From assembly GCF_001306055.1 (NCBI RefSeq), contig NZ_LGHJ01000010.1, positions 60,001 through 92,000 on the forward strand: a DNA stretch of 32,000 nucleotides, in the 5' to 3' direction. The notes under the pieces were generated by a model. The model was not told the origin of the DNA, did no database searches, and saw nothing but the letters and a program-made list of their open reading frames with translations. The stretch comes from Bellilinea caldifistulae. GTDB lineage: Bacteria > Chloroflexota > Anaerolineae > Anaerolineales > Anaerolineaceae. The first letter of the stretch is position 1. Every line of letters starts with the position of its first letter. Both the position numbers and the translations under genes were made by a program. Shown one piece after another: positions 3,819 to 24,737 of this stretch.

Positions 3819-5389
3819 TTCGCACCCCCGATCGTTTCAGATTGTGTGGTCTGTTTGTGAATTTGCAGACGGGCTTCTTCCAGCGGTACGCCCGCCATCA
3901 GAAGACCAATCAATTCTTTGGTGGCTTCCTCAGCCGAGACCGTGGCTGTAATTTTGCCCCGATACATTACCGCAATCCGATCGGATAATTGCATGATCTC
4001 ATCCAGTTCCGTGGAAACCAGCAGCACGGCTACCCCTTCGTCGCGCCGTTTCAGGATTTGAGAGTGGATATATTCAATTGAACCGACATCCAGCCCGCGT
4101 GTGGGCTGGGCAGCCACCAGCAGGTGGATAGGACGGGAAAGTTCGCGAGCAACGATCACTTTTTGCTGATTTCCCCCGGAAAGAGAACCAGCCGCCGTGA
4201 AAATGGATGGCGTGCGGATGTCGTATTCCTGCACCAGGCGGGTTGCGTTCTGCATCACGTATTCCCATTGAATAATCGCACCTTTGGCAAACGGAGGCTG
4301 GTAGTACGTGCACAACATCAGGTTTTCCATGACGGGGAAGGGCAACACCAGACCATCCCGCTGGCGATCTTCTGGAATGTGAGCCGTGCCGGCTTCGGTA
4401 AATTTGCGTGGAACAGCGTGGGTAACCTCTTTCCCGATCAGAAACACCTTACCGTCTTCTACATCCCGCATGCCGGTGACGGCTTCCACCAGTTCGGTTT
4501 GCCCGTTGCCCTGTACCCCGGCAATACCCAGAATTTCCCCTTCGCGGACTTCAAACGATACCCCATCCACAGCAACTTGATGGGTTTCATCGGTTACGAT
4601 CAGGTTCTCCACTTTGAGGATAGTTTCTTTGGGCCTGGCAGGTTCCTTTTCCAGCTCCAGCTTCACTTCTCGCCCAACCATCATGGAGGCCAGTTTGCTC
4701 TGGTCTGCTTCGGAGGGCAGCACCGAACCAATGACCTTTCCGCGGCGGATGACGGTGATGATATCGGCCACTTCCAGCACTTCTCGCAACTTGTGGGTGA
4801 TAAAGATGATGGATTTGCCCTGGGCCGTCAGGGAGCGCATGATCTCGAACAATTCATCTGCTTCCTGGGGGGTCAGCACCGCGGTGGGTTCATCGAAAAT
4901 GAGGATATTGGCATTGCGGTAAAGCAATTTGATGATTTCGACACGCTGCTGGACGCCAACCGGCAGGTCCTTGATGTAACTATCTGGGTTGACTTCCAGG
5001 CCATATTGGATTGAGATTTCGCGAATGCGTTTAGCAGCGGTTTCCCGGTCAAGAAAGCCCCCGGGTTTGAGGCTTTCTTCCCCCAGCATTACGTTTTCGG
5101 TGACGGTAAAAACGGGAATGAGCATGAAGTGCTGGTGAACCATGCCGATGCCGCGGGCAATCGCATCTGAGGGCGAACGAACCTGGAACGGTTCGCCGTT
5201 GACAAAGATTTCCCCCTCATCGGGTTTGTAAAGCCCGTAAAGAATATTCATCAGGGTGGTTTTGCCGGCGCCGTTTTCCCCCAAAAGTGCATGAATTGTC
5301 CCCTGTTCGAGCGTGAGGTCAATATGATCGTTGGCCAGTACACCGGGGAAGCGTTTGGTAATCCCGCGAAGTTCCAGTACAGGTGTCAT
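3815..5389 (-). CDS. ABC importer ATP-binding protein with tandem ATPase domains (YufO/NupO/RnsB-like)
   Basis: Two nucleotide-binding domains. The first has GENGAGKTT, LPVGVQQRVEI and ILIFDEPTAVL. The second has GVQGNGQTE, LSGGNQQK and a degenerate Walker B. I trimmed the start to ATG 5389 (MTPVLELRGITKRF) with GGAG 6 nt upstream; the longer track ORF (to 5560) would run through the tRNA gene. Confidence 0.9.
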   Translation of the reverse strand: MTPVLELRGITKRFPGVLANDHIDLTLEQGTIHALLGENGAGKTTLMNILYGLYKPDEGEIFVNGEPFQVRSPSDAIARGIGMVHQHFMLIPVFTVTENVMLGEESLKPGGFLDRETAAKRIREISIQYGLEVNPDSYIKDLPVGVQQRVEIIKLLYRNANILIFDEPTAVLTPQEADELFEIMRSLTAQGKSIIFITHKLREVLEVADIITVIRRGKVIGSVLPSEADQSKLASMMVGREVKLELEKEPARPKETILKVENLIVTDETHQVAVDGVSFEVREGEILGIAGVQGNGQTELVEAVTGMRDVEDGKVFLIGKEVTHAVPRKFTEAGTAHIPEDRQRDGLVLPFPVMENLMLCTYYQPPFAKGAIIQWEYVMQNATRLVQEYDIRTPSIFTAAGSLSGGNQQKVIVARELSRPIHLLVAAQPTRGLDVGSIEYIHSQILKRRDEGVAVLLVSTELDEIMQLSDRIAVMYRGKITATVSAEEATKELIGLLMAGVPLEEARLQIHKQTTQSETIGGAN

Positions 5390-5445
5390 ATTTTTCTCCA
5401 GGGATTTCAAGAAAAGTCCCAGGTGGGAGAGGTGTGAGATAAGGT

Positions 5446-5454
5446 ATTTTACCA
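5446..5454 (-). promoter_or_regulatory. Possible extended -10 promoter (TGGTAAAAT) for the importer operon
   Basis: The reverse complement of 5446-5454 reads TGGTAAAAT (TGn + TAAAAT), about 55 nt upstream of ATG 5389. No convincing -35 was seen. Confidence 0.3.
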
Positions 5455-5507
5455 TGAAGGAGGAGGAAAGAATTCCTGAAAGGGTATGATTTTTGGCAAA
5501 AAATTTG

Positions 5508-5536
5508 TTGACGTACCCGCAAGGGCGTGATAAAAT
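5508..5536 (+). promoter_or_regulatory. Sigma70-like promoter of tRNA-Lys
   Basis: TTGACG (5508-5513), a 17-nt spacer, then TAAAAT (5531-5536). The mature tRNA 5' end is at 5546, so the predicted TSS lies only a few nt upstream of it. Confidence 0.55.
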
Positions 5537-5545
5537 GTTGAGCGC

Positions 5546-5617
5546 GGGCGTGTAGCTCAATGGTAGAGCAGTGGCCTTTTAAGCCATTGGTTCAGGGTTC
5601 GAGCCCCTGCACGCTCA
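5546..5617 (+). tRNA. tRNA-Lys (anticodon UUU)
   Basis: Hand-folded cloverleaf:
- acceptor GGGCGTG/CACGCTC (one G-U pair);
- D arm GCTC-AATGGTA-GAGC;
- anticodon arm GTGGC-CTTTTAA-GCCAT (anticodon TTT);
- variable loop TGGTT;
- T arm CAGGG-TTCGAGC-CCCTG;
- discriminator A.
CCA is not encoded. Confidence 0.9.
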
Positions 5618-5732
5618 CTTTTTCTTGGAATGAGATTACCTGTAAGAGGGTGATGTTTGGCTACCTTTCCGGTAATCTCTTACCGGCACTTAGTCTTCTA
5701 TCTTCTGGTCGGATGCTCAGCAAGCCGAACAG

Positions 5733-5764
5733 CCCCCCTGCTTACCTGCCGCAGGGGGGTTTTG
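5733..5764 (+). terminator. Rho-independent terminator
   Basis: A perfect 9-bp GC-rich stem cccccctgc (5733-5741) / gcagggggg (5751-5759) with a 9-nt loop, followed by TTTTG. A U-tract follows only on the + strand. Confidence 0.7.
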
Positions 5765-5997
5765 TTACCCTTTGGATGCTGCACCAACTAGCCGTATATC
5801 AATTTTGTTAGACGTAGAACGGTCAAAAACTGCCCAGAAAAGCCTCTTTTTGGGTTGGTAAGTGATCCAAATGGCGCCGCGGATTGTTTTTTGGCCCTGA
5901 AAAAGAGGTCTTCTAACCTGGGGTGGGGTTGTTTTTTTTTACAGAAGAAGTGAGAGTATGCGGTGTGAGGCTTTTTCGAATGGAGGTTTGTTTACTC

Positions 5998-6390
5998 TCA
6001 ACGACGAGTGAGCGCCGCAAAATCCAATCTAATCAGCTGACTGATTTGCTGATTGACCTGTCGGATCAGAGCGATGTAAGTTTCACGACTATATTCGTAA
6101 TCTTGAATTAAGGGATGTTCGGCAACCTGTAGTTGTAATTGACGGAGATGTCCGAGAGTTTCCTCTGTTGGTTGATTGTTTCGCTGTTGAGTTTTGAGTG
6201 TTTGTTGAAGACGAGCCAGTTGATTCAATAAATCCAGGGCAGTCGAATCGTTCATCAAGGCTTGCTCTGCGTTGCGAAACCGAATAAATGCTTCGGAATG
6301 GGTTAGGTGATCAATCAGGTTTTGAAGAGCCTCTGAAAGGAAATTGACATTTGTTTGAGGCGTGTCATTTTGCAAAATCGGATTATCCAC
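5998..6390 (-). CDS. YlbF/YmcA-family protein, paralogue 2
   Basis: Helical Q/E/L-rich protein of about 130 aa with the family-typical layout (...SEAFIRFRNAEQALMNDSTALDLLNQLARLQQTLK...HPLIQDYEYSRETYIALIRQVNQQISQLIRLDF). I place the start at GTG 6390, with GGAGG (6400-6396) 5 nt upstream and a GTGGATAA overlap with the stop of the preceding gene. The track start at ATG 6450 would overlap the upstream gene by 68 nt. Confidence 0.6.
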   Translation of the reverse strand: MDNPILQNDTPQTNVNFLSEALQNLIDHLTHSEAFIRFRNAEQALMNDSTALDLLNQLARLQQTLKTQQRNNQPTEETLGHLRQLQLQVAEHPLIQDYEYSRETYIALIRQVNQQISQLIRLDFAALTRR

Positions 6391-14324: not shown

Positions 14325-16136
14325 TTGATGAATAAGCGTCTCAAATCAGTGGACCGCGCTGTTGTAATCATTCTCCTGGCTGGTTTCATCGGTATGCTGG
14401 GGTTGGAATTAATACTCAAAAATCAGCCGGCGGACTGGGGTTTTTGGATACCGGCAGTGCTGCTTGCGGCAGCAATTTCCTGGCTTTTGGCGGATTGGTG
14501 GATGGGGCGGAAACAGAAGGAGATGCTGGAATCACGCTTGCAGGATACCCGTCAAGTGGGTAGCGCTTTAGAACGCCGCCTGCACGGCATGCTGCGGTTA
14601 AATCAAGTGTGGTTAGAGGCGCAAACCGAGAAGGAATTGATTGAACGTTCCCTCTCTATCATCAGCGAAATGACCGGCGCAGTTGGGGTTTCCTTCATGC
14701 CGTTTGACGAATGGGGACAACCGCTGAATGCCCTGACGCACGGGGCTTACCCTGCGCCGGTGTTGAAGGCCTGGGCAGAACACTTAAGCGAGCCGCGTGT
14801 GCGTAACCGTTGCCGCGTCTGCCAGAAGTTAGAGACAACTGTCGGCGAATCCTGTCCGCTGCTGGAAGCGCCTTTCGATCAATCGGTACGGATTTACTGC
14901 CTGCCTTTGCAACGGGAAACTCAAACCCTGGCTATGTTAAATATCTACCTGCCACCCAGCCAGCGATTAGACAGCGAGATGCATGAATTTCTCACGACTT
15001 TGCTGCGCGAGATGCTTTCGGCATTGGAAGTCATTCGCTTGAAAACGCAGGAGCAGGCCGCCTTACGCCAGCTTCACTTTCCTCAGGTCACGCATTCCTC
15101 CATTGAAAACTACGCTCAAAACTTACTGGATCGTCTATGTGCGGTTTTGGGTTTTAGCGCAGCCCGTCTGGAAGTCAAACCATCCCTGCCGCATTTTCGG
15201 GGAATGCAACTGATGACGGGTAAAGATGCGTGGATACAATCCCAAGCGGCAGACGATTGGATGCGAGAAATGCTGAATACCGTTCGAGCGGCAGACTGTG
15301 TCCTTCGAGACGTTTCTGTCGCTGATGAGAGAGTTGTAGTGGCTCTGCCTTGCTGTCTGCCGGGGGACGTGGTGATTGGGGTGGCGCTGTTCATCAGCCG
15401 CTCGGCTCAACCCGTCTCGGACGAAACGCGTGAATTACTGAGGATCATTGCTACGCAACTGGCAATGCTGGTTGAAAGCGAACGGCTTCAGCAGGAGCGG
15501 GAATATCGGGTTGTGTTACAGGAACGCATTCGGCTGGCGCGAGAGATTCATGATAGTCTGGCCCAAACACTGGCTTACCTTAAATTGACCGTGGCTCAAA
15601 TGCAAACGCAACTGGCACATGGAGAGTTACAGCGCCTTGAACAGATGATCCATCAGTCCCATCAGGCTCTGGCAGATGCTTATCTGGAAACCCGTCAGGT
15701 CATAGACAGTTTGAGATTGAGTCCGGGTGAAGATATGATTCTCTGGCTGGAACCACTTTCCCGCGAATTTGAAAAAAATAGTGGTATGCGGGTCGAACGT
15801 CTCTTCCAGGCCGGACTGCCGAAAATTGAGCCTGAGGTTCAGGCGCAGTTATTAAGAATTGTGCAAGAAGCCCTCAGTAATGTGCGTAAGCATTCGCAGG
15901 CAAGTCAGGTTCGCATTGAAGTGCGTAACTGGAAAGGCGTGCTGATATTGGAAATCAGCGATAATGGGGTGGGATTCAGCGCCGAGGATGTACCCGAATT
16001 CTCGCGGCATGGTTTGCGCGGCATGCGCGAAAGGGCTGAATTAATCGGCGCAGACTTTCAGGTAATCAGTAAACCTCAGGCAGGGACGACCATCCGAGTT
16101 CACTTACCCTTAAAGCAAGAGGAAGCCCCGGTATGA
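14325..16136 (+). CDS. Sensor histidine kinase, NarL-partner type (2 TM, GAF-like regions, HisKA_3, HATPase_c)
   Basis: Two N-terminal TM helices are joined by a loop of only about 6 residues. The cytoplasmic region is long (about 300 aa) and GAF-like. H-box REIHDSLAQTLAYL, N-box EALSNVRKH, G-boxes DNGVGF and GLRGMRERAELIGA. Confidence 0.9.
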   Translation: MMNKRLKSVDRAVVIILLAGFIGMLGLELILKNQPADWGFWIPAVLLAAAISWLLADWWMGRKQKEMLESRLQDTRQVGSALERRLHGMLRLNQVWLEAQTEKELIERSLSIISEMTGAVGVSFMPFDEWGQPLNALTHGAYPAPVLKAWAEHLSEPRVRNRCRVCQKLETTVGESCPLLEAPFDQSVRIYCLPLQRETQTLAMLNIYLPPSQRLDSEMHEFLTTLLREMLSALEVIRLKTQEQAALRQLHFPQVTHSSIENYAQNLLDRLCAVLGFSAARLEVKPSLPHFRGMQLMTGKDAWIQSQAADDWMREMLNTVRAADCVLRDVSVADERVVVALPCCLPGDVVIGVALFISRSAQPVSDETRELLRIIATQLAMLVESERLQQEREYRVVLQERIRLAREIHDSLAQTLAYLKLTVAQMQTQLAHGELQRLEQMIHQSHQALADAYLETRQVIDSLRLSPGEDMILWLEPLSREFEKNSGMRVERLFQAGLPKIEPEVQAQLLRIVQEALSNVRKHSQASQVRIEVRNWKGVLILEISDNGVGFSAEDVPEFSRHGLRGMRERAELIGADFQVISKPQAGTTIRVHLPLKQEEAPV

Positions 16137-16789
16137 CTGTTTTTCCCGTACGATTGGTTGTCGTAGATGATCATGCGCTCTTTCGACGCGGGCTGATCGG
16201 CCTGATTAATGATTTGCCCGGTTTTCAGGTAGTCGGCGAAGCCGGCAACGGACGAGAAGCGTTGCAAGTCATTCAGCAGGAAAAACCGGATGTGGTCCTG
16301 CTGGATGTGAATATGCCGGAGATGGACGGCATTCAGACGGTGGATCAAATTCGCCGGATGAATCTGCCGGTGCGCGTATTGATGCTGACCATCTCGGAAG
16401 AGCAAGACGATTTACTTTCGGCTATCCGCTTGGGGGCGGATGGATATCTGCTCAAAAATATTGAGCCGGAGGATTTGCGTAAAGCCATTTTGCGGGTTGC
16501 CGAAGGGGATGGGGCGCTTTCCCCGGAAGTTACCGGGATTGTCCTGCGCGCGTTAGCGCAGCAGGGGGAAATCAAATCTCAACCGTTGTTGAGCGACCGC
16601 GAACTGGAAGTTCTGGATTGTCTGGCTGCCGGTCAAACCACCAGTCAAATTGCGGCTCATTTATTTATCTCAGAAAACACGGTTAAAACTCATGTGCGCC
16701 ACATTCTCGAAAAATTAGAAGCCTCCAACCGCACCGAAGCCGTCAGTAAGGGATTGCAATTGGGGTTAATTCATAAAAAAGACGGATGA
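16133..16789 (+). CDS. Response regulator, NarL/FixJ family (REC + LuxR-type HTH)
   Basis: VVVDDH, DVVLLDVNMPEMDG, VLMLT and GADGYLLK are present. The HTH is LSDRELEVLDCLAAGQTTSQIAAHLFISENTVKTHVRHILEKL. The junction with the kinase gene is an ATGA overlap. Confidence 0.92.
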   Translation: MTVFPVRLVVVDDHALFRRGLIGLINDLPGFQVVGEAGNGREALQVIQQEKPDVVLLDVNMPEMDGIQTVDQIRRMNLPVRVLMLTISEEQDDLLSAIRLGADGYLLKNIEPEDLRKAILRVAEGDGALSPEVTGIVLRALAQQGEIKSQPLLSDRELEVLDCLAAGQTTSQIAAHLFISENTVKTHVRHILEKLEASNRTEAVSKGLQLGLIHKKDG

Positions 16790-16840
16790 GCGGGTGAGCT
16801 GAAAATCACCCTAACAGAAAATTGATTTTAACCTGTAAAA

Positions 16841-16875
16841 AATTGTCCGAGTGTAGAAAATCGGACAATTTTTGT
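16841..16875 (+). terminator. Rho-independent terminator after the two-component operon
   Basis: A perfect 10-bp stem aattgtccga (16841-16850) / tcggacaatt (16861-16870) with a 10-nt loop, then TTTGTG. Confidence 0.7.
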
Positions 16876-16923
16876 GTAAATTATACGTGGGTATTTTTGG
16901 GAGTTGAATTTTCGGGAATTTAT

Positions 16924-18342
16924 ATGAATCCGGAAACGAATGCGCCTTATCAGCGAGTCTTAATTGCTTCAGCCAATCCACTCTTCGGACAGGGATTGGA
17001 AAAAATGATTCAGCGCCAGTGGAAAAATCCACAACTGGAAATCCGGCGGGTGGCTTCCAACGAAGCCGTCCTCAGTGAGATGCAAAACTGGTTGCCGGAT
17101 CTGATCATTCTGGACTATGACGACAAAGCCATTTCCCGCGCTGAATTTTTACAGGAATTTGTAGCCGGCGATCAACCCATGCAGGTTATGCTGGTGTCTT
17201 TGAAATCCAGCGGGGCGGTGGTGGTATATGACCGGCGCACCCTGACGCCTGCCCAGGCCGAAGATTGGTTGAATTTACCAAAGTTTTCGCAAACCACCAG
17301 CGAGTATCCCCCCAAACAGAGGAGATCATCTATGAAGCATTTTGTGATTGTTGGTGTTCTCATCGCTGCCTTTACTGCCTTGATTTACTTTCTTTTGAGC
17401 AATATCCCCTTGTTGCCGATTGCGGCCAGTGCGCAGGCGCAGCCTATTGACCAGTTGTTCAACCTGCACTTCTTCATGATCTCGTTGTTGTTCTCTTTGA
17501 TTGTCGTCTTTCTCGGTTACAGTCTGGTTGTTTTCCGCCATAAACCGGGAGAAGAAGAGGATGGTGCCTATATCAAGGGCAACAATCCACTTGAGATCAT
17601 CTGGACGGTCATACCGTTGGGAATCGTAATTTATTTTGCCTATTTGGGTTCGGTCTCACTGGCTGAAACACGCCGGGCTGATCCGCAAGCTCTTGAAATT
17701 AAAGTAGTGGCCGGGCAGTGGTTCTGGCGGTTTGAGTATCCTGATTACGGGATTGTCTCCAACACAATGGTAATGCCGGTTAACAAGCAGGCTCTGTTGA
17801 AACTGACCTCGCTGGATGTCATTCATTCTTTCTGGGTGCCGGAATTTCGGGTCAAGCAGGACACCTTGCCGGGAGAAAATCTGGTGCGTGAATTACGGTT
17901 AACCCCCACGGAGTTGGGAGAATTCAAGGTGCGTTGTGCCGAAATGTGCGGTACCTCCCACGCTTATATGGAGTCGCCGGTCAGGGTGGTTACGCAAGCC
18001 GAATTTGATCAGTGGGTGCAGGATCAACTGGCTGCCATCGGCACCGACCCGGTGGCACGTGGCGAGGTTTGGGCGCGGAATAATGGTTGCCTTTCCTGTC
18101 ATTCTGTGGACGGCTCCCCGAATGTCGGCCCAACCTGGAAAGGCCTGTACGGGCTTACCCACGAACTCACGGATGGCTCGGTAGTCACCGTGGATGATGA
18201 ATACTTGCTGACGGCGATCGTCAACCCGAATGCTCAGGTGCCGAAGGGTTTTGCACCGGGAGTGATGCCGCAGATCTACAAGGACACCATTCCGGAGCAG
18301 CAAATCCTGGAGATCATCGAATACATCAAGTCGCTCAAATAA
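16924..18342 (+). CDS. coxB: Cytochrome c oxidase subunit II (caa3 type, CuA + C-terminal heme c domain) with an in-frame N-terminal receiver-like domain
   Basis: CuA site HSFWVPEF...CAEMCGTSHAYM; heme c motif CLSCHS; three hydrophobic segments. The frame is open from ATG 16924, the first ATG after the terminator. Residues 1-136 resemble a NarL-type REC domain. The alternative internal start is ATG 17332 (MKHFVIVG), with GAGGAG 7 nt upstream. Confidence 0.8.
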   Translation: MNPETNAPYQRVLIASANPLFGQGLEKMIQRQWKNPQLEIRRVASNEAVLSEMQNWLPDLIILDYDDKAISRAEFLQEFVAGDQPMQVMLVSLKSSGAVVVYDRRTLTPAQAEDWLNLPKFSQTTSEYPPKQRRSSMKHFVIVGVLIAAFTALIYFLLSNIPLLPIAASAQAQPIDQLFNLHFFMISLLFSLIVVFLGYSLVVFRHKPGEEEDGAYIKGNNPLEIIWTVIPLGIVIYFAYLGSVSLAETRRADPQALEIKVVAGQWFWRFEYPDYGIVSNTMVMPVNKQALLKLTSLDVIHSFWVPEFRVKQDTLPGENLVRELRLTPTELGEFKVRCAEMCGTSHAYMESPVRVVTQAEFDQWVQDQLAAIGTDPVARGEVWARNNGCLSCHSVDGSPNVGPTWKGLYGLTHELTDGSVVTVDDEYLLTAIVNPNAQVPKGFAPGVMPQIYKDTIPEQQILEIIEYIKSLK

Positions 18343-18363
18343 TCAATGAGGAGAGGCAGACTT

Positions 18364-20211
18364 ATGAAAGGTATTTTTTCTTACGGAATTGTGAGGGGGC
18401 TGATTGGTCAGATCGTGGGCTGGGCAGCCGGCATTGGTCTGGTCACCGGAATCCGTGCCCTGATGGGGCTTGCCTACAAGGCTGAGCCGGCCTGGGTAGT
18501 GGGGGCGGCCTTCGGGGTCATTGGATTCTTGATCGGGATTGGGGCATTCCGAGACTGGTTTGCCTGGGCAAAGGGCGAAGAGACCCCTGATCCGGAGGAA
18601 ATTCAGGAAGAGCCGGGAGTTAAACGCTACTTTGGGTTCAGTCTGGATCACAAAGTCATTGGTGTTCAATATGCATTTCTTTCCCTCTTTCTGCTGGTGG
18701 TTGGAGGCTCATTTGCGCTCATCTTCCGTGTCGAGCTGGTGCAGACCGGCATGCAATGGGTTTCACTGAATTTCTTTAATACCCTGATCGGAATGCACGG
18801 CATGACGCTGATCGTTTCGATCCTGATGGGCATTTCGGCGATGTCAAACTACGCCGTGCCGCTTTTGATCGGTGCCAGAGACATGGCCTTCCCGCGCCTG
18901 AACGCTTTTTCTTTCTGGCTGGCGGTGCCGGCTTCGCTGGTGTTGGTGTCGGCAATTTTCACCGGCGGTTTTGATACGGGCTGGACCGGTTACCCGCCGC
19001 TCAGCCTTCGCGCCCCAATGGGAATGCAGATGTTCTTTGTGGCCGTGTTCTTCGCAGGATGGTCCTCCATTTTAGGGGCGTTGAATCTGATTGTGACCAT
19101 TTTGCGGATGCGTGCGCCCGGTATGAATATGTTCCGTATGCCGATTTTTGCATGGGCGACTTTGGCAACCTCCATCATCGCTTTAACGGCCACTCAATTG
19201 ATCGGTACTTCCTTCCAAATGGTCAGTTTTGAGCGTTTGTTCGGGATGGGATTTTTCGATGCTACCAAAGGCGGCAATCCCATTCTGTTCCAGCACCTGT
19301 TCTGGTTTTATTCTCATCCTGCAGTCTATATTTTCGTCCTGCCCGGTTTGGGAATCATCAGCGAATTGCTGCCGGTATTCGTGCGTAAACCCCTGTTTGG
19401 CTATAAATGGGTCGCCATGTCCTCGCTTGGGATTGCACTGGTGGGTTTTCTGGTGTGGGCGCACCACATGTTTACTTCCGGTATGGAGGAATATCTGCGC
19501 GTCCCGTTCATGTACTCAACCCTTCTGGTAGCTGTCCCCACCGGCATCAAGTTCTTCTCGTGGGTGGCGACCATGTGGATGGGACGCATTCGTTTTCAAG
19601 TCCCCATGCTTTTCCTTATCGGTGCGATCATCGTGTTCTTAATAGGCGGTTTGAGCGGTCCCCCGCTTGGAACCGTTTCGACCAATCTCCACATGCACGA
19701 CAGTTACTTTGTGGTCGGTCACTTCCACGCGACCATGTTTGGCGGTTTCATCTTTCCCTTGTTTGCTGCCGTCTATTACTGGTATCCCAAAGTGACTGGA
19801 CGGAAGATGAATGACCTGCTGGGAAAAATTCATTTCTATCTACTTACTCCGGGGTTCCTGATCATGTCCTTTGGGCAGATGCAGGTTGGACTGTTGGGAA
19901 TGCGCCGCCGTATTGCGGATTATGACCCGGCTCAGGGTTTTGAGACAGCTCATCTCATTATTACTATCGCGGGTTTCATGGTAGCCCTATCGGTGTTGAT
20001 TTTCCTGATCAACATGTTTGTCAGCGCCAAACGCGGTGAGGTGGTCACGGAGAATGTCTGGCAGTCTCGTTCACCGGAATGGACCGTGCTGCCCACGCCG
20101 GCACCGATGCACAATTATCCGCAGCCGATCCGGGTGGTGGGTGATCCGTATGATTACGGCTTGAAAGGTGCCCGCTATGTTGAAGTCTTGCCTCAGCAGG
20201 CGGGTGATTGA
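18364..20211 (+). CDS. ctaD: Cytochrome c oxidase subunit I (heme-copper oxidase, type A2)
   Basis: DHKVIGVQY, WAHHMF and VVGHFHATMFGG are present, along with the helix VI motif FYSHPAVY (Tyr-Ser in place of the type A1 Glu). The start is set at ATG 18364, with GAGGAGAGG upstream. The N-terminus carries a hydrophobic extension of about 70 aa. Confidence 0.92.
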   Translation: MKGIFSYGIVRGLIGQIVGWAAGIGLVTGIRALMGLAYKAEPAWVVGAAFGVIGFLIGIGAFRDWFAWAKGEETPDPEEIQEEPGVKRYFGFSLDHKVIGVQYAFLSLFLLVVGGSFALIFRVELVQTGMQWVSLNFFNTLIGMHGMTLIVSILMGISAMSNYAVPLLIGARDMAFPRLNAFSFWLAVPASLVLVSAIFTGGFDTGWTGYPPLSLRAPMGMQMFFVAVFFAGWSSILGALNLIVTILRMRAPGMNMFRMPIFAWATLATSIIALTATQLIGTSFQMVSFERLFGMGFFDATKGGNPILFQHLFWFYSHPAVYIFVLPGLGIISELLPVFVRKPLFGYKWVAMSSLGIALVGFLVWAHHMFTSGMEEYLRVPFMYSTLLVAVPTGIKFFSWVATMWMGRIRFQVPMLFLIGAIIVFLIGGLSGPPLGTVSTNLHMHDSYFVVGHFHATMFGGFIFPLFAAVYYWYPKVTGRKMNDLLGKIHFYLLTPGFLIMSFGQMQVGLLGMRRRIADYDPAQGFETAHLIITIAGFMVALSVLIFLINMFVSAKRGEVVTENVWQSRSPEWTVLPTPAPMHNYPQPIRVVGDPYDYGLKGARYVEVLPQQAGD

Positions 20212-20222
20212 GGAGGAGAATG

Positions 20223-20426
20223 ATGCAATCCACAAAAATTGATGAACTCAAACGCGGTGTACTGGTCTTTTTGGGATTGGCGGTTCTGACGGTAGTGGAA
20301 TACTACCTTGGTACCCATGAAGCCGCTCCAATTTTCCTTTGGGTTGTAGCGCTTTTAAAAGCCGGACTGGTGCTGGTTTACTTCATGCACATTGGGCGGG
20401 TTTTTCGCTCGGAAGGAGAACACTAA
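20223..20426 (+). CDS. Small two-TM cytochrome c oxidase subunit IV-like protein
   Basis: 67-68 aa with two hydrophobic helices (VLVFLGLAVLTVVEYYLG, IFLWVVALLKAGLVLVYFMH), as in prokaryotic subunit IV. AGGAGGAG (20211-20218) lies upstream; ATG 20220 is an alternative start. It sits between the subunit I and subunit III genes. Confidence 0.7.
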   Translation: MQSTKIDELKRGVLVFLGLAVLTVVEYYLGTHEAAPIFLWVVALLKAGLVLVYFMHIGRVFRSEGEH

Positions 20427-20996
20427 ATGACCGCGCCTGAAGCAGCCCTGACGACTTACCGACAAAAGCTAGCCAACAATCGGCTGGGTCTCTGGTTGTT
20501 TATCCTGTCCGACTCCTTTGTGTTTGCGGCGTTGCTGGTAACCCGCTTTTATCTGCTGGGTGACAAACGCCCGCATCTGGAGCAGGAATTGGGCTTGATT
20601 GTCACCTCTGTACTCCTGATCAGTTCGTTTTTTGCCAACCGGGCAGAAGTACAAATTTCCAAAGGCAACCGCAAAGGCTTTCTGACCAGCATCCTGATCA
20701 CCATGCTTTTGGGAATCGCCTTTCTGGTCGGTGTGGTCGGGTTTGAGTGGCGGCTGGCGCCGTTTGGCCCGGCCGATGGCGTGGAAGGCGCTGTCTTCTT
20801 CATGATGACCGGCATGCACGCCTTCCATGTACTGACGGGTGTCATCTTCTTGTTGATCGTCTTTCGCAATGGCTTGAAGGGACATTACAGCCCCGAAAAA
20901 CACTGGGCGGTTGAAGCCGCTGCTAACTACTGGCACTTTGTGGACGTGGTTTGGATTTTCTTCTACCCGGCCCTGTACCTGATTGGTTCACTTTGA
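20427..20996 (+). CDS. ctaE: Cytochrome c oxidase subunit III
   Basis: 189 aa with 5 TM segments. The C-terminal motif is YWHFVDVVWIFFYPALYL. GAAGGAGAA lies upstream. Confidence 0.88.
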   Translation: MTAPEAALTTYRQKLANNRLGLWLFILSDSFVFAALLVTRFYLLGDKRPHLEQELGLIVTSVLLISSFFANRAEVQISKGNRKGFLTSILITMLLGIAFLVGVVGFEWRLAPFGPADGVEGAVFFMMTGMHAFHVLTGVIFLLIVFRNGLKGHYSPEKHWAVEAAANYWHFVDVVWIFFYPALYLIGSL

Positions 20997-21015
20997 AAGA
21001 AAAGGAGCAGGAATA

Positions 21016-21615
21016 ATGCAGCGGACAATCTGGCTGATTGGGATGGCTGTTCTGGCTGGTTTAATCGCCGTGTGGCTGCTGGCCTTTGCTCAGCCGTATT
21101 CCTATCATGGGTCGTTGATTGAACCGCCGATGGCTGCCCCGCCGATTGAACTTACCCGTGCCGATGGATCACTCTACCGATTGAGTGATCAACGCGGAAA
21201 AGTTACGCTGCTTTTTTTTGGCTACACTACCTGCCCCGATTTTTGTCCGGCCACAATGGCCGAAATAAAGCGGGTCAAAGCCGATTTGTCCGCCTATGCG
21301 GATCGTTTGGATGTGGTCTTTATCACGGTGGATCCTCAGCGGGATAATCCGCAGCGGATTCAATCCTATGCGGCCGGTTTTGATCCGCAATTCATCGGTC
21401 TCTCCGGCAGTGAAGAGGAACTTTCGCCGATCTGGAAGGCTTATGGGGTCTACCGCAAGATTCAAGAGGGTCAAACGGCTTTGGGTTATCTGGTAGATCA
21501 TTCAACCCGTGTCTATTTGATTGACCCGGCTGGTAATCTGCGTCTGACTTTTGCCTATGGAACATCCCCAGAGGATATCGCCGCAGATATTCGTCAGGTG
21601 CTAAAGGAGAAGTAG
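21016..21615 (+). CDS. SCO1/SenC copper chaperone (thioredoxin fold)
   Basis: N-terminal TM anchor, CPDFCP (CxxxC) and a downstream His (VDHSTRVYLI). I trimmed the start to ATG 21016, with AAAGGAG upstream. Confidence 0.88.
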   Translation: MQRTIWLIGMAVLAGLIAVWLLAFAQPYSYHGSLIEPPMAAPPIELTRADGSLYRLSDQRGKVTLLFFGYTTCPDFCPATMAEIKRVKADLSAYADRLDVVFITVDPQRDNPQRIQSYAAGFDPQFIGLSGSEEELSPIWKAYGVYRKIQEGQTALGYLVDHSTRVYLIDPAGNLRLTFAYGTSPEDIAADIRQVLKEK

Positions 21616-21616
21616 G

Positions 21617-22138
21617 ATGTCCCCGGCGGTTCAGGCAGCTTTGCGGCGTTTGTGGTGGAGTTTGCTGATCAGTTCGATTTTTGCCTTCGTGGTCAGTGAA
21701 GTTTCCTATCAACTGGTCAAAGATCGCAGTGAGCGTCCGCCGCAAACGGTTGAAATTCTCATCCCGGCCGGCACTGCGGCAAAGATCGCCAATGGTGATG
21801 AAGGCCCCACCCTCCCGGAGATGCGGTTTGTGGAGGGTGACACTCTGCTTGTCCGCAATCTGGATGAGGTTTCTCATCAGTTGGGGCCGTTATGGGTATT
21901 GCCGGGTTCTTCCAGCCGGCTGACGCTTGACCGTCCCAGTCAGTACACCATGGAATGCAGTTTCCAGCAGTCCCGTTCATTAGGGATTGATGTGCTGCCC
22001 CGTGCCAAAACCTCCGATAGAATTTTTGGAATCATCTCGGTTGGGTTCCCGACCTGGATTTTACTCTGGCTTTATTGGCTGGTGGCAAAACCGCTGTCGG
22101 GCAGTGAAAATGAAAAGATGTTGAGCGAGGCTGGCTAA
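21617..22138 (+). CDS. Uncharacterised membrane protein (N- and C-terminal TM helices flanking a beta-rich domain of about 110 aa)
   Basis: 173 aa. AAGGAGAAG SD; it starts 1 nt after the SCO1 stop and ends 6 nt before the SURF1 start. I recognised no family by eye. Confidence 0.7.
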   Translation: MSPAVQAALRRLWWSLLISSIFAFVVSEVSYQLVKDRSERPPQTVEILIPAGTAAKIANGDEGPTLPEMRFVEGDTLLVRNLDEVSHQLGPLWVLPGSSSRLTLDRPSQYTMECSFQQSRSLGIDVLPRAKTSDRIFGIISVGFPTWILLWLYWLVAKPLSGSENEKMLSEAG

Positions 22139-22144
22139 ATTTTG

Positions 22145-22957
22145 ATGACCGCCAAGTTGTTAACTCCGCGCTGGATTTTAACCACCTTGCTGGTGATGAT
22201 GGCCGTGGCAGTCATGATTCGGCTGGGGTTCTGGCAATTGGATCGGTTGGAGTGGCGGCGGGATCTCAATCAGCGCATTTTGAGCCAGCTGAATGCCCCA
22301 CCCCTGGATTTGAACAAGGACGTACCGGTGACGGAGTTGTTCGAAATGGAATATCGGATGATCCAGGTCAGCGGTATTTACGATTATGAACACGAATTTC
22401 TCTGGCGCAATCAGGTCTGGGAGAATCAACCGGGGTATCATCTGTTCACCCCCTTGCGTATCGAGGGGAGCGATTGGGTCATTTATGTCAACCGGGGTTG
22501 GATCCCGCTGGGAGCAGCAGATGCCGAAAGCCGGCTGCAATACCGCCGGGATGGAACGGTCACACTGAGCGGGATGCTCCGCCGGCCGATTCCCAAGCCG
22601 GCGATCGGCGGTGTGGCAGACCCGCTGCCTGCTTCGAATCAACCCGTCCCGGACGCCTGGAATTGGATTGATCTGGAGCGCTGGCGTACCGAAACCGGTC
22701 TCAATTTGCTGCCGATGTGGGTTCAGGAGGCTCCCCAGGGGACGCCCTCACGACTGCCGTACCCCTCCTTGCCGGAAATTGAAATCACCGAAGGGCCGCA
22801 CTTCGGGTATGCCCTGCAATGGTTTTCCTTTGCGGCGATTCTGGCGCTTGGCTATCCCTTCTTTGTGCGTAAACAATTGGAACTCAAAACTGAAACTAAC
22901 CGTAGAAAATCCGATGAAGATACCTTGCATACCGGGGAGGAAATTTATGAGCATTGA
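22145..22957 (+). CDS. SURF1/Shy1 family cytochrome oxidase biogenesis protein
   Basis: N-terminal TM with LGFWQLDRLEWRRDL, the central YHLFTPL...VNRGWIP motif, and a C-terminal TM (YALQWFSFAAILAL). Confidence 0.85.
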   Translation: MTAKLLTPRWILTTLLVMMAVAVMIRLGFWQLDRLEWRRDLNQRILSQLNAPPLDLNKDVPVTELFEMEYRMIQVSGIYDYEHEFLWRNQVWENQPGYHLFTPLRIEGSDWVIYVNRGWIPLGAADAESRLQYRRDGTVTLSGMLRRPIPKPAIGGVADPLPASNQPVPDAWNWIDLERWRTETGLNLLPMWVQEAPQGTPSRLPYPSLPEIEITEGPHFGYALQWFSFAAILALGYPFFVRKQLELKTETNRRKSDEDTLHTGEEIYEH

Positions 22958-24737
22958 ACAACGACCGCGTTACTGGCTGCTGGCGGTGGCTATTCTCACC
23001 TTTCTCTCGCTGATGATTGGGTATGGGATGCGTTTCAACCCGGACGGACAGGGATGCCCGGATTTTCCGACCTGTTTCGGTCAATGGACGATTCCGGCCG
23101 AATCAGCGGCTCGTCTGGAAATTGCCCATCGTTTAATCGCAGCAATCAGCGGATTGATCACCCTGTCTTTGACCGGCTGGATGTGGCTAAAACGGCAGGG
23201 TGGAGGGTTGAAATTTAGCCTGACCATCACTTCGGTCTTGTTTCTTGTTCAGGCCGGTCTGGGAGCCGGATTGGCAGGAGGCGTGGGGGCGGTCTGGCTT
23301 TCCACGGCCCATTTAGCGGCGGCGCTCTCCAGCATGGCTTTGCTCAGCGGGGCTGTGACGCAGTCATTTCTTTCAGGCCCCTTCCCGCAACAAAATTCGC
23401 CATTTTTTCGCTCATCTTTAAGGCGTTTTTCAACGGCAACCCTGCTTTTGGTGTTCGGATTAATGATTTCCGGTGTGCTGGTTGCCCGGCTGGACGCGGG
23501 GAGTGCCTGTGCCGGTTTTCCATTGTGCAACGGCGAGCTGCCTTCAACCACCTTGGGTTGGCTGGCCATGGGTCACCGCTTGTTGACTTTACTGGCCGGG
23601 CTGGCTGTGATGGGGACATTCTTCCGGGTGAACCGTTCCTACTTCGACCAGCCATTGGTGTTAAGTTCCGCTAGCGCGCTGATGGTGCTGTTTGTCGGTC
23701 AGGCATTTATTGGCGCCATGAAAGTCCAGCAAAACTTTCCGCCGGATCTGGTGGTGGTTCATGCAGCAATCACGGCTGCTGTGTGGGTTGCGGCAGTGAT
23801 TTTGTTTGTTGCCGCTCTCCGTTTGGGTAAAAGTGAGGCGGATGAGCGTCTGGCGGCTCTCACCATGCGAGTGGGTGGAAAACAGCGTCTGAAAGCCTAT
23901 CTCATGCTGAATAAACCCATCATCGTCGCGCTGCTTTTGGTGACTACCTACGCGGGCATGGTTGTTGGCGGTAAGTCCATTCCATCGGTGGAGTTGACTC
24001 TCTGGACGTTGCTGGGGGGAGCTCTGGCGGCAGGCGGATCCAGCGCCATCAACCAGTACATTGACCGCCAGATTGATGGGGCAATGCAGCGAACGGCTAA
24101 ACGCCCGATCCCGTCCGGCGTTTTAACCCCCGCCGAAGGGCTGGCTTACGGGTTAAGTGCCTGTCTGGCTGCGTTTTTTATTCTGGCAGGAACGGTCAAT
24201 CTGTTGGCAGCGCTGCTTTCGGTTGCCGGAATGATTTATTATGTTTTGATTTACAGCATCTGGCTCAAACACTTAACAGTGCAGAACATTGTGATCGGCG
24301 GGGGTGCAGGGGCGATACCCCCGCTGGTTGGGTGGGCAGCCGCAACCGGCAGTTTGAATATTCCCTCACTGTTCCTGTTTGCGCTCGTGTTCATGTGGAC
24401 ACCTCCTCACTTTTGGGCGTTGGCGCTGGTGCGAGCCAAAGACTATGCCCGTGCCGGTGTACCGATGCTGCCAGTGGTGCGCGGCGAGAAAGAGACCCGT
24501 AATCAGATATTTATTTACACCCTCGAACTGGTTGCCCTTACTTTGCTTATGCCGGTTTTCAAAGTGGGAGGAAGTATCTTCTTAATTTCGGCAGTGGTTT
24601 TGGGTTTGTGGTTGATTCATACCGCCTGGAATGTGTTGCGTAAGCCGGGCAATAAAGTGGCCTGGCGCATGTATCGTTATTCCTCCATGTATCTGGCGTT
24701 CATCTTTCTGGCATTGGTGGTGGATGTGCTGCTATAA
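22947..24737 (+). CDS. ctaAB: Fused heme A synthase (CtaA/COX15) and protoheme IX farnesyltransferase (CtaB/CyoE)
   Basis: I trimmed the start to ATG 22947 (MSIEQRP), with GGGGAGG upstream and an 11-nt overlap with SURF1. The N-terminal half has the Cys pairs CPDFPTC and CAGFPLC. The C-terminal half has LNKPIIVALLL... and NQYIDRQIDGAMQRTAKRP (UbiA-type prenyltransferase motif). 596 aa. Confidence 0.88.
   Translation: MSIEQRPRYWLLAVAILTFLSLMIGYGMRFNPDGQGCPDFPTCFGQWTIPAESAARLEIAHRLIAAISGLITLSLTGWMWLKRQGGGLKFSLTITSVLFLVQAGLGAGLAGGVGAVWLSTAHLAAALSSMALLSGAVTQSFLSGPFPQQNSPFFRSSLRRFSTATLLLVFGLMISGVLVARLDAGSACAGFPLCNGELPSTTLGWLAMGHRLLTLLAGLAVMGTFFRVNRSYFDQPLVLSSASALMVLFVGQAFIGAMKVQQNFPPDLVVVHAAITAAVWVAAVILFVAALRLGKSEADERLAALTMRVGGKQRLKAYLMLNKPIIVALLLVTTYAGMVVGGKSIPSVELTLWTLLGGALAAGGSSAINQYIDRQIDGAMQRTAKRPIPSGVLTPAEGLAYGLSACLAAFFILAGTVNLLAALLSVAGMIYYVLIYSIWLKHLTVQNIVIGGGAGAIPPLVGWAAATGSLNIPSLFLFALVFMWTPPHFWALALVRAKDYARAGVPMLPVVRGEKETRNQIFIYTLELVALTLLMPVFKVGGSIFLISAVVLGLWLIHTAWNVLRKPGNKVAWRMYRYSSMYLAFIFLALVVDVLL

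Follow-up and report, generated by a model that had tools for sequence, protein, structure and literature searches.

A receiver-derived domain encoded in frame with subunit II of a caa3-type cytochrome c oxidase in Bellilinea caldifistulae and other Anaerolineae

The region described here lies in a stretch of 32,000 nucleotides (nt) of the genome of Bellilinea caldifistulae (the whole stretch is called the window below), in which the genes of a membrane sensor histidine kinase and a NarL/LuxR-type response regulator are followed by a cytochrome c oxidase operon. The first frame of this operon starts at ATG 16924-16926 and runs for 472 codons to its first stop, 18340-18342; the product of 16924-18342 is identical to GAP10100.1 / WP_061914597.1, for which the sole annotation is "cytochrome c oxidase subunit II". 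Ahead of subunit II (CoxB) the frame encodes a receiver-like (REC-like) domain, and a Shine-Dalgarno (SD) sequence and ATG within the frame would allow CoxB to be initiated by itself. The original prediction, made from the DNA letters, had placed the start at 16924, the end of the open frame at 18340-18342 and a GAGGAG at 17319-17324, 7 nt before ATG 17332, and all its coordinates are correct. The features of the frame, including three predicted transmembrane (TM) segments, are as follows.

16924..17280, + strand: pseudo-receiver (REC-like) domain, amino acids (aa) 1-119; folded core aa 11-116, b1-a1-b2-a2-b3-a3-b4-b5'-a, without alpha4.
17281..17331, + strand: linker, aa 120-136; disordered by prediction, differing among fusions in both length and sequence, in frame throughout.
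17319..17324, + strand: internal Shine-Dalgarno sequence GAGGAG, within the linker codons Q-R-R, 7 nt before ATG 17332.
17332..18342, + strand: CoxB proper, 336 aa from the internal ATG (residues 137-472); stop 18340-18342.
17341-17397, + strand: TM0, signal-anchor-like segment, aa 140-158.
17425-17436, + strand: ASA|Q, signal-peptidase-like site, aa 168-171.
17479-17535, + strand: TM1, aa 186-204.
17590-17646, + strand: TM2, aa 223-241.
17824-17970, + strand: CuA site H-x36-CxExCGxxHxxM, aa 301-349, with H301, C338-x-E-x-C342, H346 and M349.
18088-18102, + strand: CLSCH motif of the cytochrome c domain, aa 389-393.

By its motifs and profile matches, the region from residue 137 to residue 472 is a complete caa3-type subunit II with two TM helices, all CuA ligands and a C-terminal heme c motif. 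The product scores 162.4 bits with the CoxB model TIGR02866 (cut-off 147.7), and the Pfam models COX2_TM, COX2 and Cytochrom_C match as well. The first hydrophobic segment and the ASA|Q sequence lie where they had been reported, and the charges before TM0 amount to +5/-1. From the three hydrophobic segments and the charge bias the domain is predicted to be cytoplasmic, with TM0 running from the inside to the outside and CuA and heme c exposed outside, in agreement with the topology that had been called coherent. Signal peptidase may cleave after ASA: in relatives Ala at -1 and Ser at +1 of this site are conserved, but position -3 is often Q, D or E.

The relationship of the upstream domain to receivers is distant when the window protein is taken singly, as the Pfam model Response_reg (PF00072) gives 19.1 bits (E = 0.0015), below its gathering threshold of 30.2 bits. 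Most relatives are without a precomputed PF00072 match, and one fused relative (P0151) stands just above the threshold at 30.9 bits. A first protein search returned 229 relatives of the domain, the best with 62% identity, and 279 cluster representatives were found at E <= 0.001 in a library of 1.8 billion proteins; neither Pfam nor NCBIfam holds a model specific to the family. A family profile built from 62 members matches canonical receivers of hybrid kinases in the same library at E = 8.5e-9 (P0219, itself scoring 182 bits on Response_reg) and Mycobacterium tuberculosis NarL (3eul) at E = 1e-3. Profile-profile comparison (hhalign) with the family of the adjacent NarL-type regulator aligned beta1 to beta4 with E = 2.4e-6 and a probability of 89%. 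The receiver match proposed for residues 1-136 is thus significant by family profile and by profile-profile comparison.

The AlphaFold model of the domain has a predicted local distance difference test score (pLDDT) of 82 and a predicted template-modelling score of 0.76; after beta4 it contains one strand (98-103) and one helix (109-116). Among the 50 best Foldseek matches in the PDB almost all are receivers (Spo0F, NarL, DesR, VraR and others); the best has an E of about 2e-3, a template-modelling score of about 0.5 and some 82-90 columns superposed at about 2 Å, and none reaches E <= 0.001. In the predicted structure alpha4 is absent, so that the fold falls short of the complete (beta/alpha)5 arrangement, while the fold matches are good over the 82-90 columns. 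Sequence comparison and the model together characterize the domain as a truncated receiver fold of approximately 105 residues that derives from receivers of the NarL type; pseudo-receiver of NarL ancestry is the most fitting name for it. As a side observation, the Joint Genome Institute (JGI) labels many stand-alone pseudo-receivers of 110-150 aa "cytochrome c oxidase subunit 2", a name that was presumably transferred from the fusions and is misleading.

The residues of the domain were compared across loci collected by a pattern scan of one genome per GTDB species, in which 173 genomes held a relative and 80 loci were kept; frames were read from the conserved start to the first stop, and counts are given over 81 loci. 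Alignments to 3eul and to the regulator family show that the Mg-binding acidic pair of receivers is replaced by S16 (81/81) and A17 (78/81). The acceptor Asp at the end of beta3 corresponds to D64, which is kept in 80 of the 81 sequences and matches D58 of the regulator and the acceptor position of 3eul; the Ser/Thr of beta4 corresponds to S92, present in all 81 and aligned with T86 of the regulator. No conserved Lys occurs among the 81 sequences, the alignments to receivers ending at beta4. Positions invariant in the set include S16, L20, G24, L25, P58, L60, D66, D67, F75, S92, L93, Y102, R104 and W115, R104 standing directly after the last strand of the model, and the invariant N18, L20, G24, L25, D66, D67, Y102 and D103 lie on the former active-site face or at the start of alpha1. 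The alpha1 motif PLF..GL of receivers is retained. The original prediction of a degenerate receiver N-terminal to, and in frame with, a caa3-type subunit II, with the acidic pair lost and the Asp and Ser kept, agrees with these results; its three aligned blocks were also recovered, except that the register of the acidic pair was off by one residue, the pair being S16-A17 and not A15-S16.

Given these replacements the domain has probably lost the capacity for phosphorylation. One alternative is that D64 is a true phospho-acceptor for the adjacent kinase, with D66 and D67 replacing the acidic pair, and that the domain serves as a phosphate sink or as a post-translational switch of oxidase activity or assembly. 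The near-complete retention of D64, the invariance of D66, D67, S92 and R104 and the concentration of conservation on the active-site face speak for it; the loss of both Mg-binding residues and the lack of alpha4 and of any conserved Lys make it improbable, as does the receiver-like protein Osp, which shows a comparable pattern of lost residues and functions unphosphorylated (PMC9430884).

In the genomes scanned the pseudo-receiver is a small family confined to Anaerolineae, the 80 kept loci being labelled Anaerolineae or, more broadly, Chloroflexota/Chloroflexia, with the genera Bellilinea, Anaerolinea, Thermanaerothrix, Longilinea and Levilinea represented. There is no stop between the domain and CoxB in Bellilinea caldifistulae and in most Anaerolineaceae: in-frame CoxB fusions of 456-544 aa were found at 47 of the 81 loci, among them those of the isolates Thermanaerothrix daxensis GNS-1, T. 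solaris, Anaerolinea thermolimosa IMO-1 and Longilinea arvoryzae KOME-1. At 30 loci the domain is a stand-alone gene of 118-167 aa, usually just upstream of coxB; at three it is fused to the N-terminus of SURF1, and one locus is frameshifted. Whether fused or not, 72 of the 81 frames have an ATG 12-16 codons (mostly 13-14) ahead of the motif ASANPLF. The possibility that the fusion is unique to the window was considered, as the first protein search had given almost only short proteins, and was rejected, since the frames in the 80 genomes showed the opposite. In addition, a cluster of 56 members (>=90% identity) from independent assemblies shows the CoxB fusion, and an exhaustive library search revealed annotated fused proteins of 472, 488, 399 and 532 aa.

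Selection on the frame was estimated from the ratio of non-synonymous to synonymous substitution rates (dN/dS) against seven relatives (85-94% and about 70% identical), which gave 0.03-0.13 for the domain, 0.02-0.06 for CoxB and 0.3-1.5 for the linker; purifying selection on the domain is as strong as on CoxB. The checks proposed earlier, for recurrent fusion of homologues to COX2 and for purifying selection on the frame, both came out positive: the fusion is present in 46 other species-level genomes, the orthologous loci keep the frame, and dN/dS is low. An artefact, in which the frame before coxB is open by chance or through faulty sequencing or assembly and the likeness to receivers is noise, could draw on the sub-threshold Pfam score of the window protein. 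The chance of such an artefact is virtually nil in view of the identical architecture in the other species and in many independent assemblies of the same cluster, the strong purifying selection, and the agreement of profile, profile-profile comparison and fold matches on receivers. An untranslated DNA or RNA signal was likewise ruled out as an explanation of the upstream part by the overwhelmingly synonymous substitutions in the domain (35 synonymous vs 5 non-synonymous against locus L005).

The internal SD sequence, which had been thought to permit a CoxB lacking the receiver, is strongly reinforced by the comparison. An AGGAG-like site lies 11-16 nt before the internal CoxB ATG in 46 of the 47 fusions (a script flagged 44; L036 and L077 also carry one, and L035 lacks it). 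The median energies of pairing with the anti-SD sequence are -8.4 kcal/mol for the internal site, -5.8 for the start of the domain and -7.6 for free-standing coxB genes. Of the Arg codons among the six that precede the internal Met, 86% are AGG or AGA, compared with 6% elsewhere in the same open reading frames (ORFs), a bias indicating that the internal SD is selected as nucleotides and not as amino acids. The idea that AGGAG merely reflects a need for positive charge before the TM helix is ruled out by this codon bias and by the SURF1 fusions, which use CGN codons and no SD (L052 and L055 also lack an internal start). Ribosomes starting at 16924 meet no stop before 18340, so any translation of the domain must yield the fusion; very probably the same mRNA serves for plain CoxB too, in which case one ORF would give two products. 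In locus L035 (an Anaerolinea metagenome-assembled genome, about 5370-5380) TTA replaces the internal ATG and the SD is absent, and CoxB there could therefore arise only as a fusion; either the fusion is truly obligate in this genome or the assembly is in error. That a pseudo-receiver is encoded in frame with CoxB, with an internal start between them, can accordingly be held with high confidence.

Between the two parts the linker is poorly constrained. Residues 120-132 have pLDDT <50 in the AlphaFold model, and the length across CoxB fusions varies widely (12-60 aa by a scripted estimate), with the frame never lost. The fused and separate states were exchanged several times during evolution, approximately seven changes being counted on a rough neighbour-joining tree. 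At L019, compared with the fused relative L025, a 1-nt indel has brought a TAG into the linker and made the gene stand-alone; this form is found on five contigs. These repeated interchanges, the sufficiency of a 1-nt indel to split the domain from CoxB, the nearly neutral linker and the retained internal ribosome-binding site would be expected if the covalent link had no function, that is, if the domain worked separately and the stop had been lost neutrally, the fusion being cleaved at the signal-peptidase-like site or made as a minor by-product. This view concerns the fusion only and overlaps with the other readings of the domain's role. It is quite unlikely, as the frame was kept in 47 species through many linker indels, which is unexpected for neutral read-through; L035 lost the internal start, and the domain was fused independently to a second membrane protein with an N-in helix, SURF1, without an internal start.

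The surroundings of the fused gene comprise the following features.

14325..16136, + strand: membrane sensor histidine kinase with 2 N-terminal TM segments, GAF domains, HisKA_3 and HATPase_c (Pfam).
16133..16789, + strand: NarL/LuxR-type response regulator with a canonical receiver and a GerE helix-turn-helix domain (Response_reg 107 bits, GerE 75.7 bits); overlaps the kinase stop.
16792..16811, no strand assigned: palindrome GGGTGAGCTGAAAATCACCC, family consensus GGGTGAT-N6-ATCACCC; candidate operator of the NarL-type regulator.
16826..16835, + strand: half-site-like element TTTTAACCTG (family AATTAACCC / AAATCCCCC) at fixed spacing from the palindrome, from an ungapped palindrome-anchored consensus.
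16838..16873, + strand: 13-bp hairpin followed by a T-run, overlapping the predicted -35 element and the spacer of the conserved operon promoter.
16877..16882, + strand: -10-like hexamer TAAATT; predicted transcription start site (TSS) near 16889-16891, about 35 nt before ATG 16924.
18346..24737, + strand: rest of the operon (coxA, COX4_pro, COX3, SCO1, 173-aa ORF, SURF1, fused CtaA-CtaB), from ORFs and Pfam; the order is shared by related loci.
21617-22138, + strand: 173-aa ORF between SCO1 and SURF1, conserved in position in almost all related cox clusters.
22611-24737, + strand: fusion protein of about 600-700 aa that joins heme A synthase (COX15-CtaA) to heme O synthase (UbiA/CtaB), also present in related loci.

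The kinase gene is found upstream of the pseudo-receiver gene in most of the 80 related loci, and the nearest solved relatives of its product are the VraS, DesK and DevS/DosT kinase cores. Its first GAF region (about aa 160-180) carries a Cys cluster, RCRVCQK...ESC, which may be a metal- or redox-sensing site. The receiver of the regulator is canonical, with D12, D13, D58, T86 and K108 invariant in 19 orthologues. The usual gene order is cytochrome c, kinase, NarL-type regulator, pseudo-receiver, coxB-coxA-COX4-COX3-SCO1-(173-aa ORF)-SURF1-CtaA/CtaB; in some genomes the pseudo-receiver gene precedes SCO1-SURF1-CtaAB or SURF1 alone instead. The 173-aa ORF has no Pfam or NCBIfam match and probably encodes an assembly factor or accessory protein of the oxidase, as yet uncharacterised.

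The kinase and regulator genes overlap, and the gap from the regulator to the pseudo-receiver gene is 134 nt in the window and 125-540 nt across loci, with hairpins and T-runs. The hairpin seen upstream of the gene in the original prediction is real (13 pairs, -15.7 kcal/mol, z = -4.75, with compensatory changes in L009-L011) and probably terminates the transcript of the regulator gene. The palindrome is the sole match to its consensus in the window, where 0.16 are expected by chance; it lies 91-160 nt upstream of the ATG of the pseudo-receiver in 69 of 79 loci, compared with 9 matches in 731 kb of flanks, and the distance is held where the two-component genes are distant or absent (L014, L027, L048, L049, L056, L069, L074). 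In L005-L084 it shows covarying stem extensions, often with a T-run, and in many loci it may also be the terminator of the regulator gene. After the palindrome the family has the half-site-like TTAACC(C/T), followed by -35-like and -10-like elements at fixed spacing: TAnnnT occurs 65-68 nt after the palindrome in 64 of 69 loci, as TAAATT in 42 of these. Palindrome, -35-like and -10-like elements are fixed relative to the ATG in 64-69 of 79 loci, even where insertions have come between the regulator and the gene. The promoter was inferred from cross-species conservation and the hairpin folded directly; a generic promoter and terminator scan of 16600-17500 found nothing, the 10-nt loop of the hairpin exceeding the limit of the scan, and an Rfam search of 16700-17000 gave no match, so that palindrome and hairpin correspond to no RNA family described there. 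From its position and conservation the palindrome is probably bound by the adjacent NarL-type regulator.

In locus L003 an IS110-family transposase gene (3952-4935, - strand) lies between the regulator and the pseudo-receiver gene, and the latter stays with coxB together with its upstream region. A 122-aa ORF after the regulator of L003 was considered as a second copy of the domain and found to be unrelated. The conserved arrangement places the pseudo-receiver gene, on sequence grounds, in the regulated oxidase operon as its first cistron and not in the kinase operon.

The fusions to SURF1 (L046, L052 and L055, at about 4990-6190, and the library protein P0124, with Pfam SURF1 at aa 160-371) occur in a comparable context, the kinase, regulator and palindrome standing before them and CtaA/CtaB after them. 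SURF1 begins with an N-in helix. Both CoxB and SURF1 thus start with a helix of this orientation, so the domain would be a membrane-tethered cytoplasmic module in both kinds of fusion.

Distant pseudo-receivers of the same truncated design were observed at three further loci. L085 (2087-2458) stands after a kinase-regulator pair, with Glu at the position of the acceptor Asp, and no identifiable oxidase gene was found on its short contig. L088 also follows a kinase-regulator pair. L087 (273-683) heads an operon of ferredoxin and aldehyde:ferredoxin oxidoreductase genes, with TAACCCG inverted repeats upstream (16-90). These contexts hint that the role of the domain is tied to regulation and not to the oxidase alone.

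The main rival of a signalling role assigns the domain to oxidase biogenesis, or to the oxidase itself as a subunit, with no part in signalling; as a cytoplasmic interaction module it would, for instance, escort or hold the N-terminus of CoxB or coordinate SURF1/CtaA-dependent heme a insertion or copper delivery. CoxB (47 loci) and SURF1 (three loci), the only fusion partners found, are both oxidase proteins, stand-alone copies are found directly before coxB, SCO1-SURF1-CtaAB or SURF1, and L035, L052 and L055 are obligate fusions without an internal start. Against this stand the descent from NarL-type receivers with retention of the alpha1 motif that receivers use for kinase docking, the almost constant proximity of a kinase-regulator pair, the distant relatives that follow such a pair without an identifiable oxidase gene (L085, on its short contig) or precede a non-oxidase operon (L087), and the stand-alone forms without a membrane anchor. 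On balance this explanation is unlikely.

The function proposed here is a feedback loop of the type known from FixT and Osp. The conserved promoter with its palindromic operator, probably bound by the regulator, would drive the synthesis of the pseudo-receiver as first product of the operon; the domain, acting unphosphorylated as a mimic of the regulator, would dock on the HisKA_3 membrane kinase or on the receiver of the regulator, and kinase output would follow how much oxidase subunit or assembly factor had already been synthesized. Being fused to CoxB or SURF1 would anchor the domain to the membrane and make the coupling stoichiometric. Two-component signalling may be coupled to the oxidase at the protein level, as the original prediction envisaged. 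By analogy with the known systems, a phosphorylation-independent, membrane-tethered pseudo-receiver that reports oxidase production to the kinase is put forward as the most likely role, at somewhat less than even odds; the architecture and the feedback taken as one combined statement are slightly favoured.

Several points weigh against this proposal. The link of the domain to the kinase or the regulator is one that we infer from sequence. All fusions are to oxidase proteins and none to a kinase or regulator, so that Rosetta-stone reasoning favours a direct role at the oxidase. The residues D64, D66, D67, S92, D103 and R104 cluster at the former active site, and phosphorylation or metal binding could be retained there. 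The promoter, the TSS and the pairing of palindrome and regulator are predictions, and the generic sigma-70 scan was negative. Finally, the SD upstream of the full-length fusion is weaker than the internal one, and the full-length fusion is predicted from sequence. A variant that would move the site of action to the enzyme, and that appears very unlikely, is that the pseudo-receiver is a true cytoplasmic domain of the working caa3 oxidase or of the SURF1 complex, through which the kinase reads assembly or occupancy or controls the enzyme post-translationally. If that were the case, it would provide a direct protein-level wire from a two-component system to a respiratory complex in place of a diffusible inhibitor.

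A receiver-derived domain in frame with subunit II across dozens of species, including cultured ones, represents a new architecture of heme-copper oxidases. Heme-copper oxidase subunits are not known, to our knowledge, to carry signalling domains, and we know of no characterised subunit II with an N-terminal cytoplasmic receiver-like domain. If the feedback model holds, the kinase controls the synthesis of an enzyme that has the kinase's own modulator as a translated part, and the internal start would set the ratio of tagged to untagged subunit. Complete aerobic oxidase operons are retained by the cultured Anaerolineae concerned, although these were described as strictly anaerobic, and the elaborate dedicated control circuit argues that the operons are used. 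The domain family is currently concealed within proteins annotated "cytochrome c oxidase subunit II", a name also given by JGI to 120-aa stand-alone proteins. Literature on receiver and pseudo-receiver domains in connection with cytochrome oxidase, CoxB and Anaerolineae, and on aerobic respiration in Bellilinea, yielded no description of such an arrangement. Pseudo-receivers and in-frame internal initiation are already known; what appears to be new is to find them combined with a subunit of a respiratory oxidase and, independently, with SURF1.

Compared with known systems, the CoxB part shares with the caa3 subunits II of Thermus thermophilus (IIc) and Bacillus (CtaC) the two TM helices, the CuA cupredoxin domain, the C-terminal CxxCH and an N-terminal signal-like segment. 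The receivers of NarL, DesR and VraR, including that of the regulator encoded upstream, are the best sequence or fold matches of the domain (3eul, DesR, VraR) and have in common with it PLF..GL, the acceptor Asp and the Ser/Thr of beta4; unlike them, the pseudo-receiver has Ser-Ala for the acidic pair, no alpha4, no conserved Lys and no DNA-binding domain, with an identity of about 16-20%. The internal start recalls CheA-L/CheA-S and IF2 alpha/beta, which are long and short isoforms arising by in-frame internal initiation. The likeness lies in a single ORF with an internal SD and ATG from which long and short forms are possible; in the present case, unlike those isoforms, the short form is the ancestral complete enzyme subunit and the long form adds an unrelated domain, both forms being predicted.

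The closest functional parallels are found among single-domain receiver-like proteins. The kinase on which FixT feeds back, the oxygen sensor FixL of the FixLJ regulon, also governs the expression of a high-affinity terminal oxidase. FixT and Osp are induced by the pathway they inhibit, and both directly inhibit kinase autophosphorylation (PMC7078487, PMC9430884). Osp of Rhodobacter sphaeroides, the product of a CtrA-activated gene, has the Asp but neither the acidic pair nor the Lys, and inhibits CckA in unphosphorylated form (PMC9430884). It thus resembles the pseudo-receiver, at the level of the receiver fold, in the retained acceptor Asp and in the missing Mg-binding pair, and the beta5 Lys is absent from Osp where the family has no conserved Lys; Osp differs in being a soluble, unfused protein with the full (beta/alpha)5 fold that belongs to the alphaproteobacterial CckA-ChpT-CtrA phosphorelay, and its binding to and inhibition of the kinase are experimental findings, whereas those of the pseudo-receiver are proposed. 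FixT of Caulobacter crescentus and Sinorhizobium meliloti is likewise a pathway-induced single-domain receiver in negative feedback on a sensor kinase, and Caulobacter FixT binds an Fe-S cluster by means of four Cys and is degraded by Lon (PMC7078487). In contrast, the pseudo-receiver family has no conserved Cys and no alpha4 and is often fused to CoxB or SURF1. The feature that would relate it to the FixT/Osp class as a whole is control by the modulated pathway, as the pseudo-receiver is the first cistron behind a conserved palindrome promoter beside the kinase and regulator genes, with the regulator predicted to bind the palindrome.

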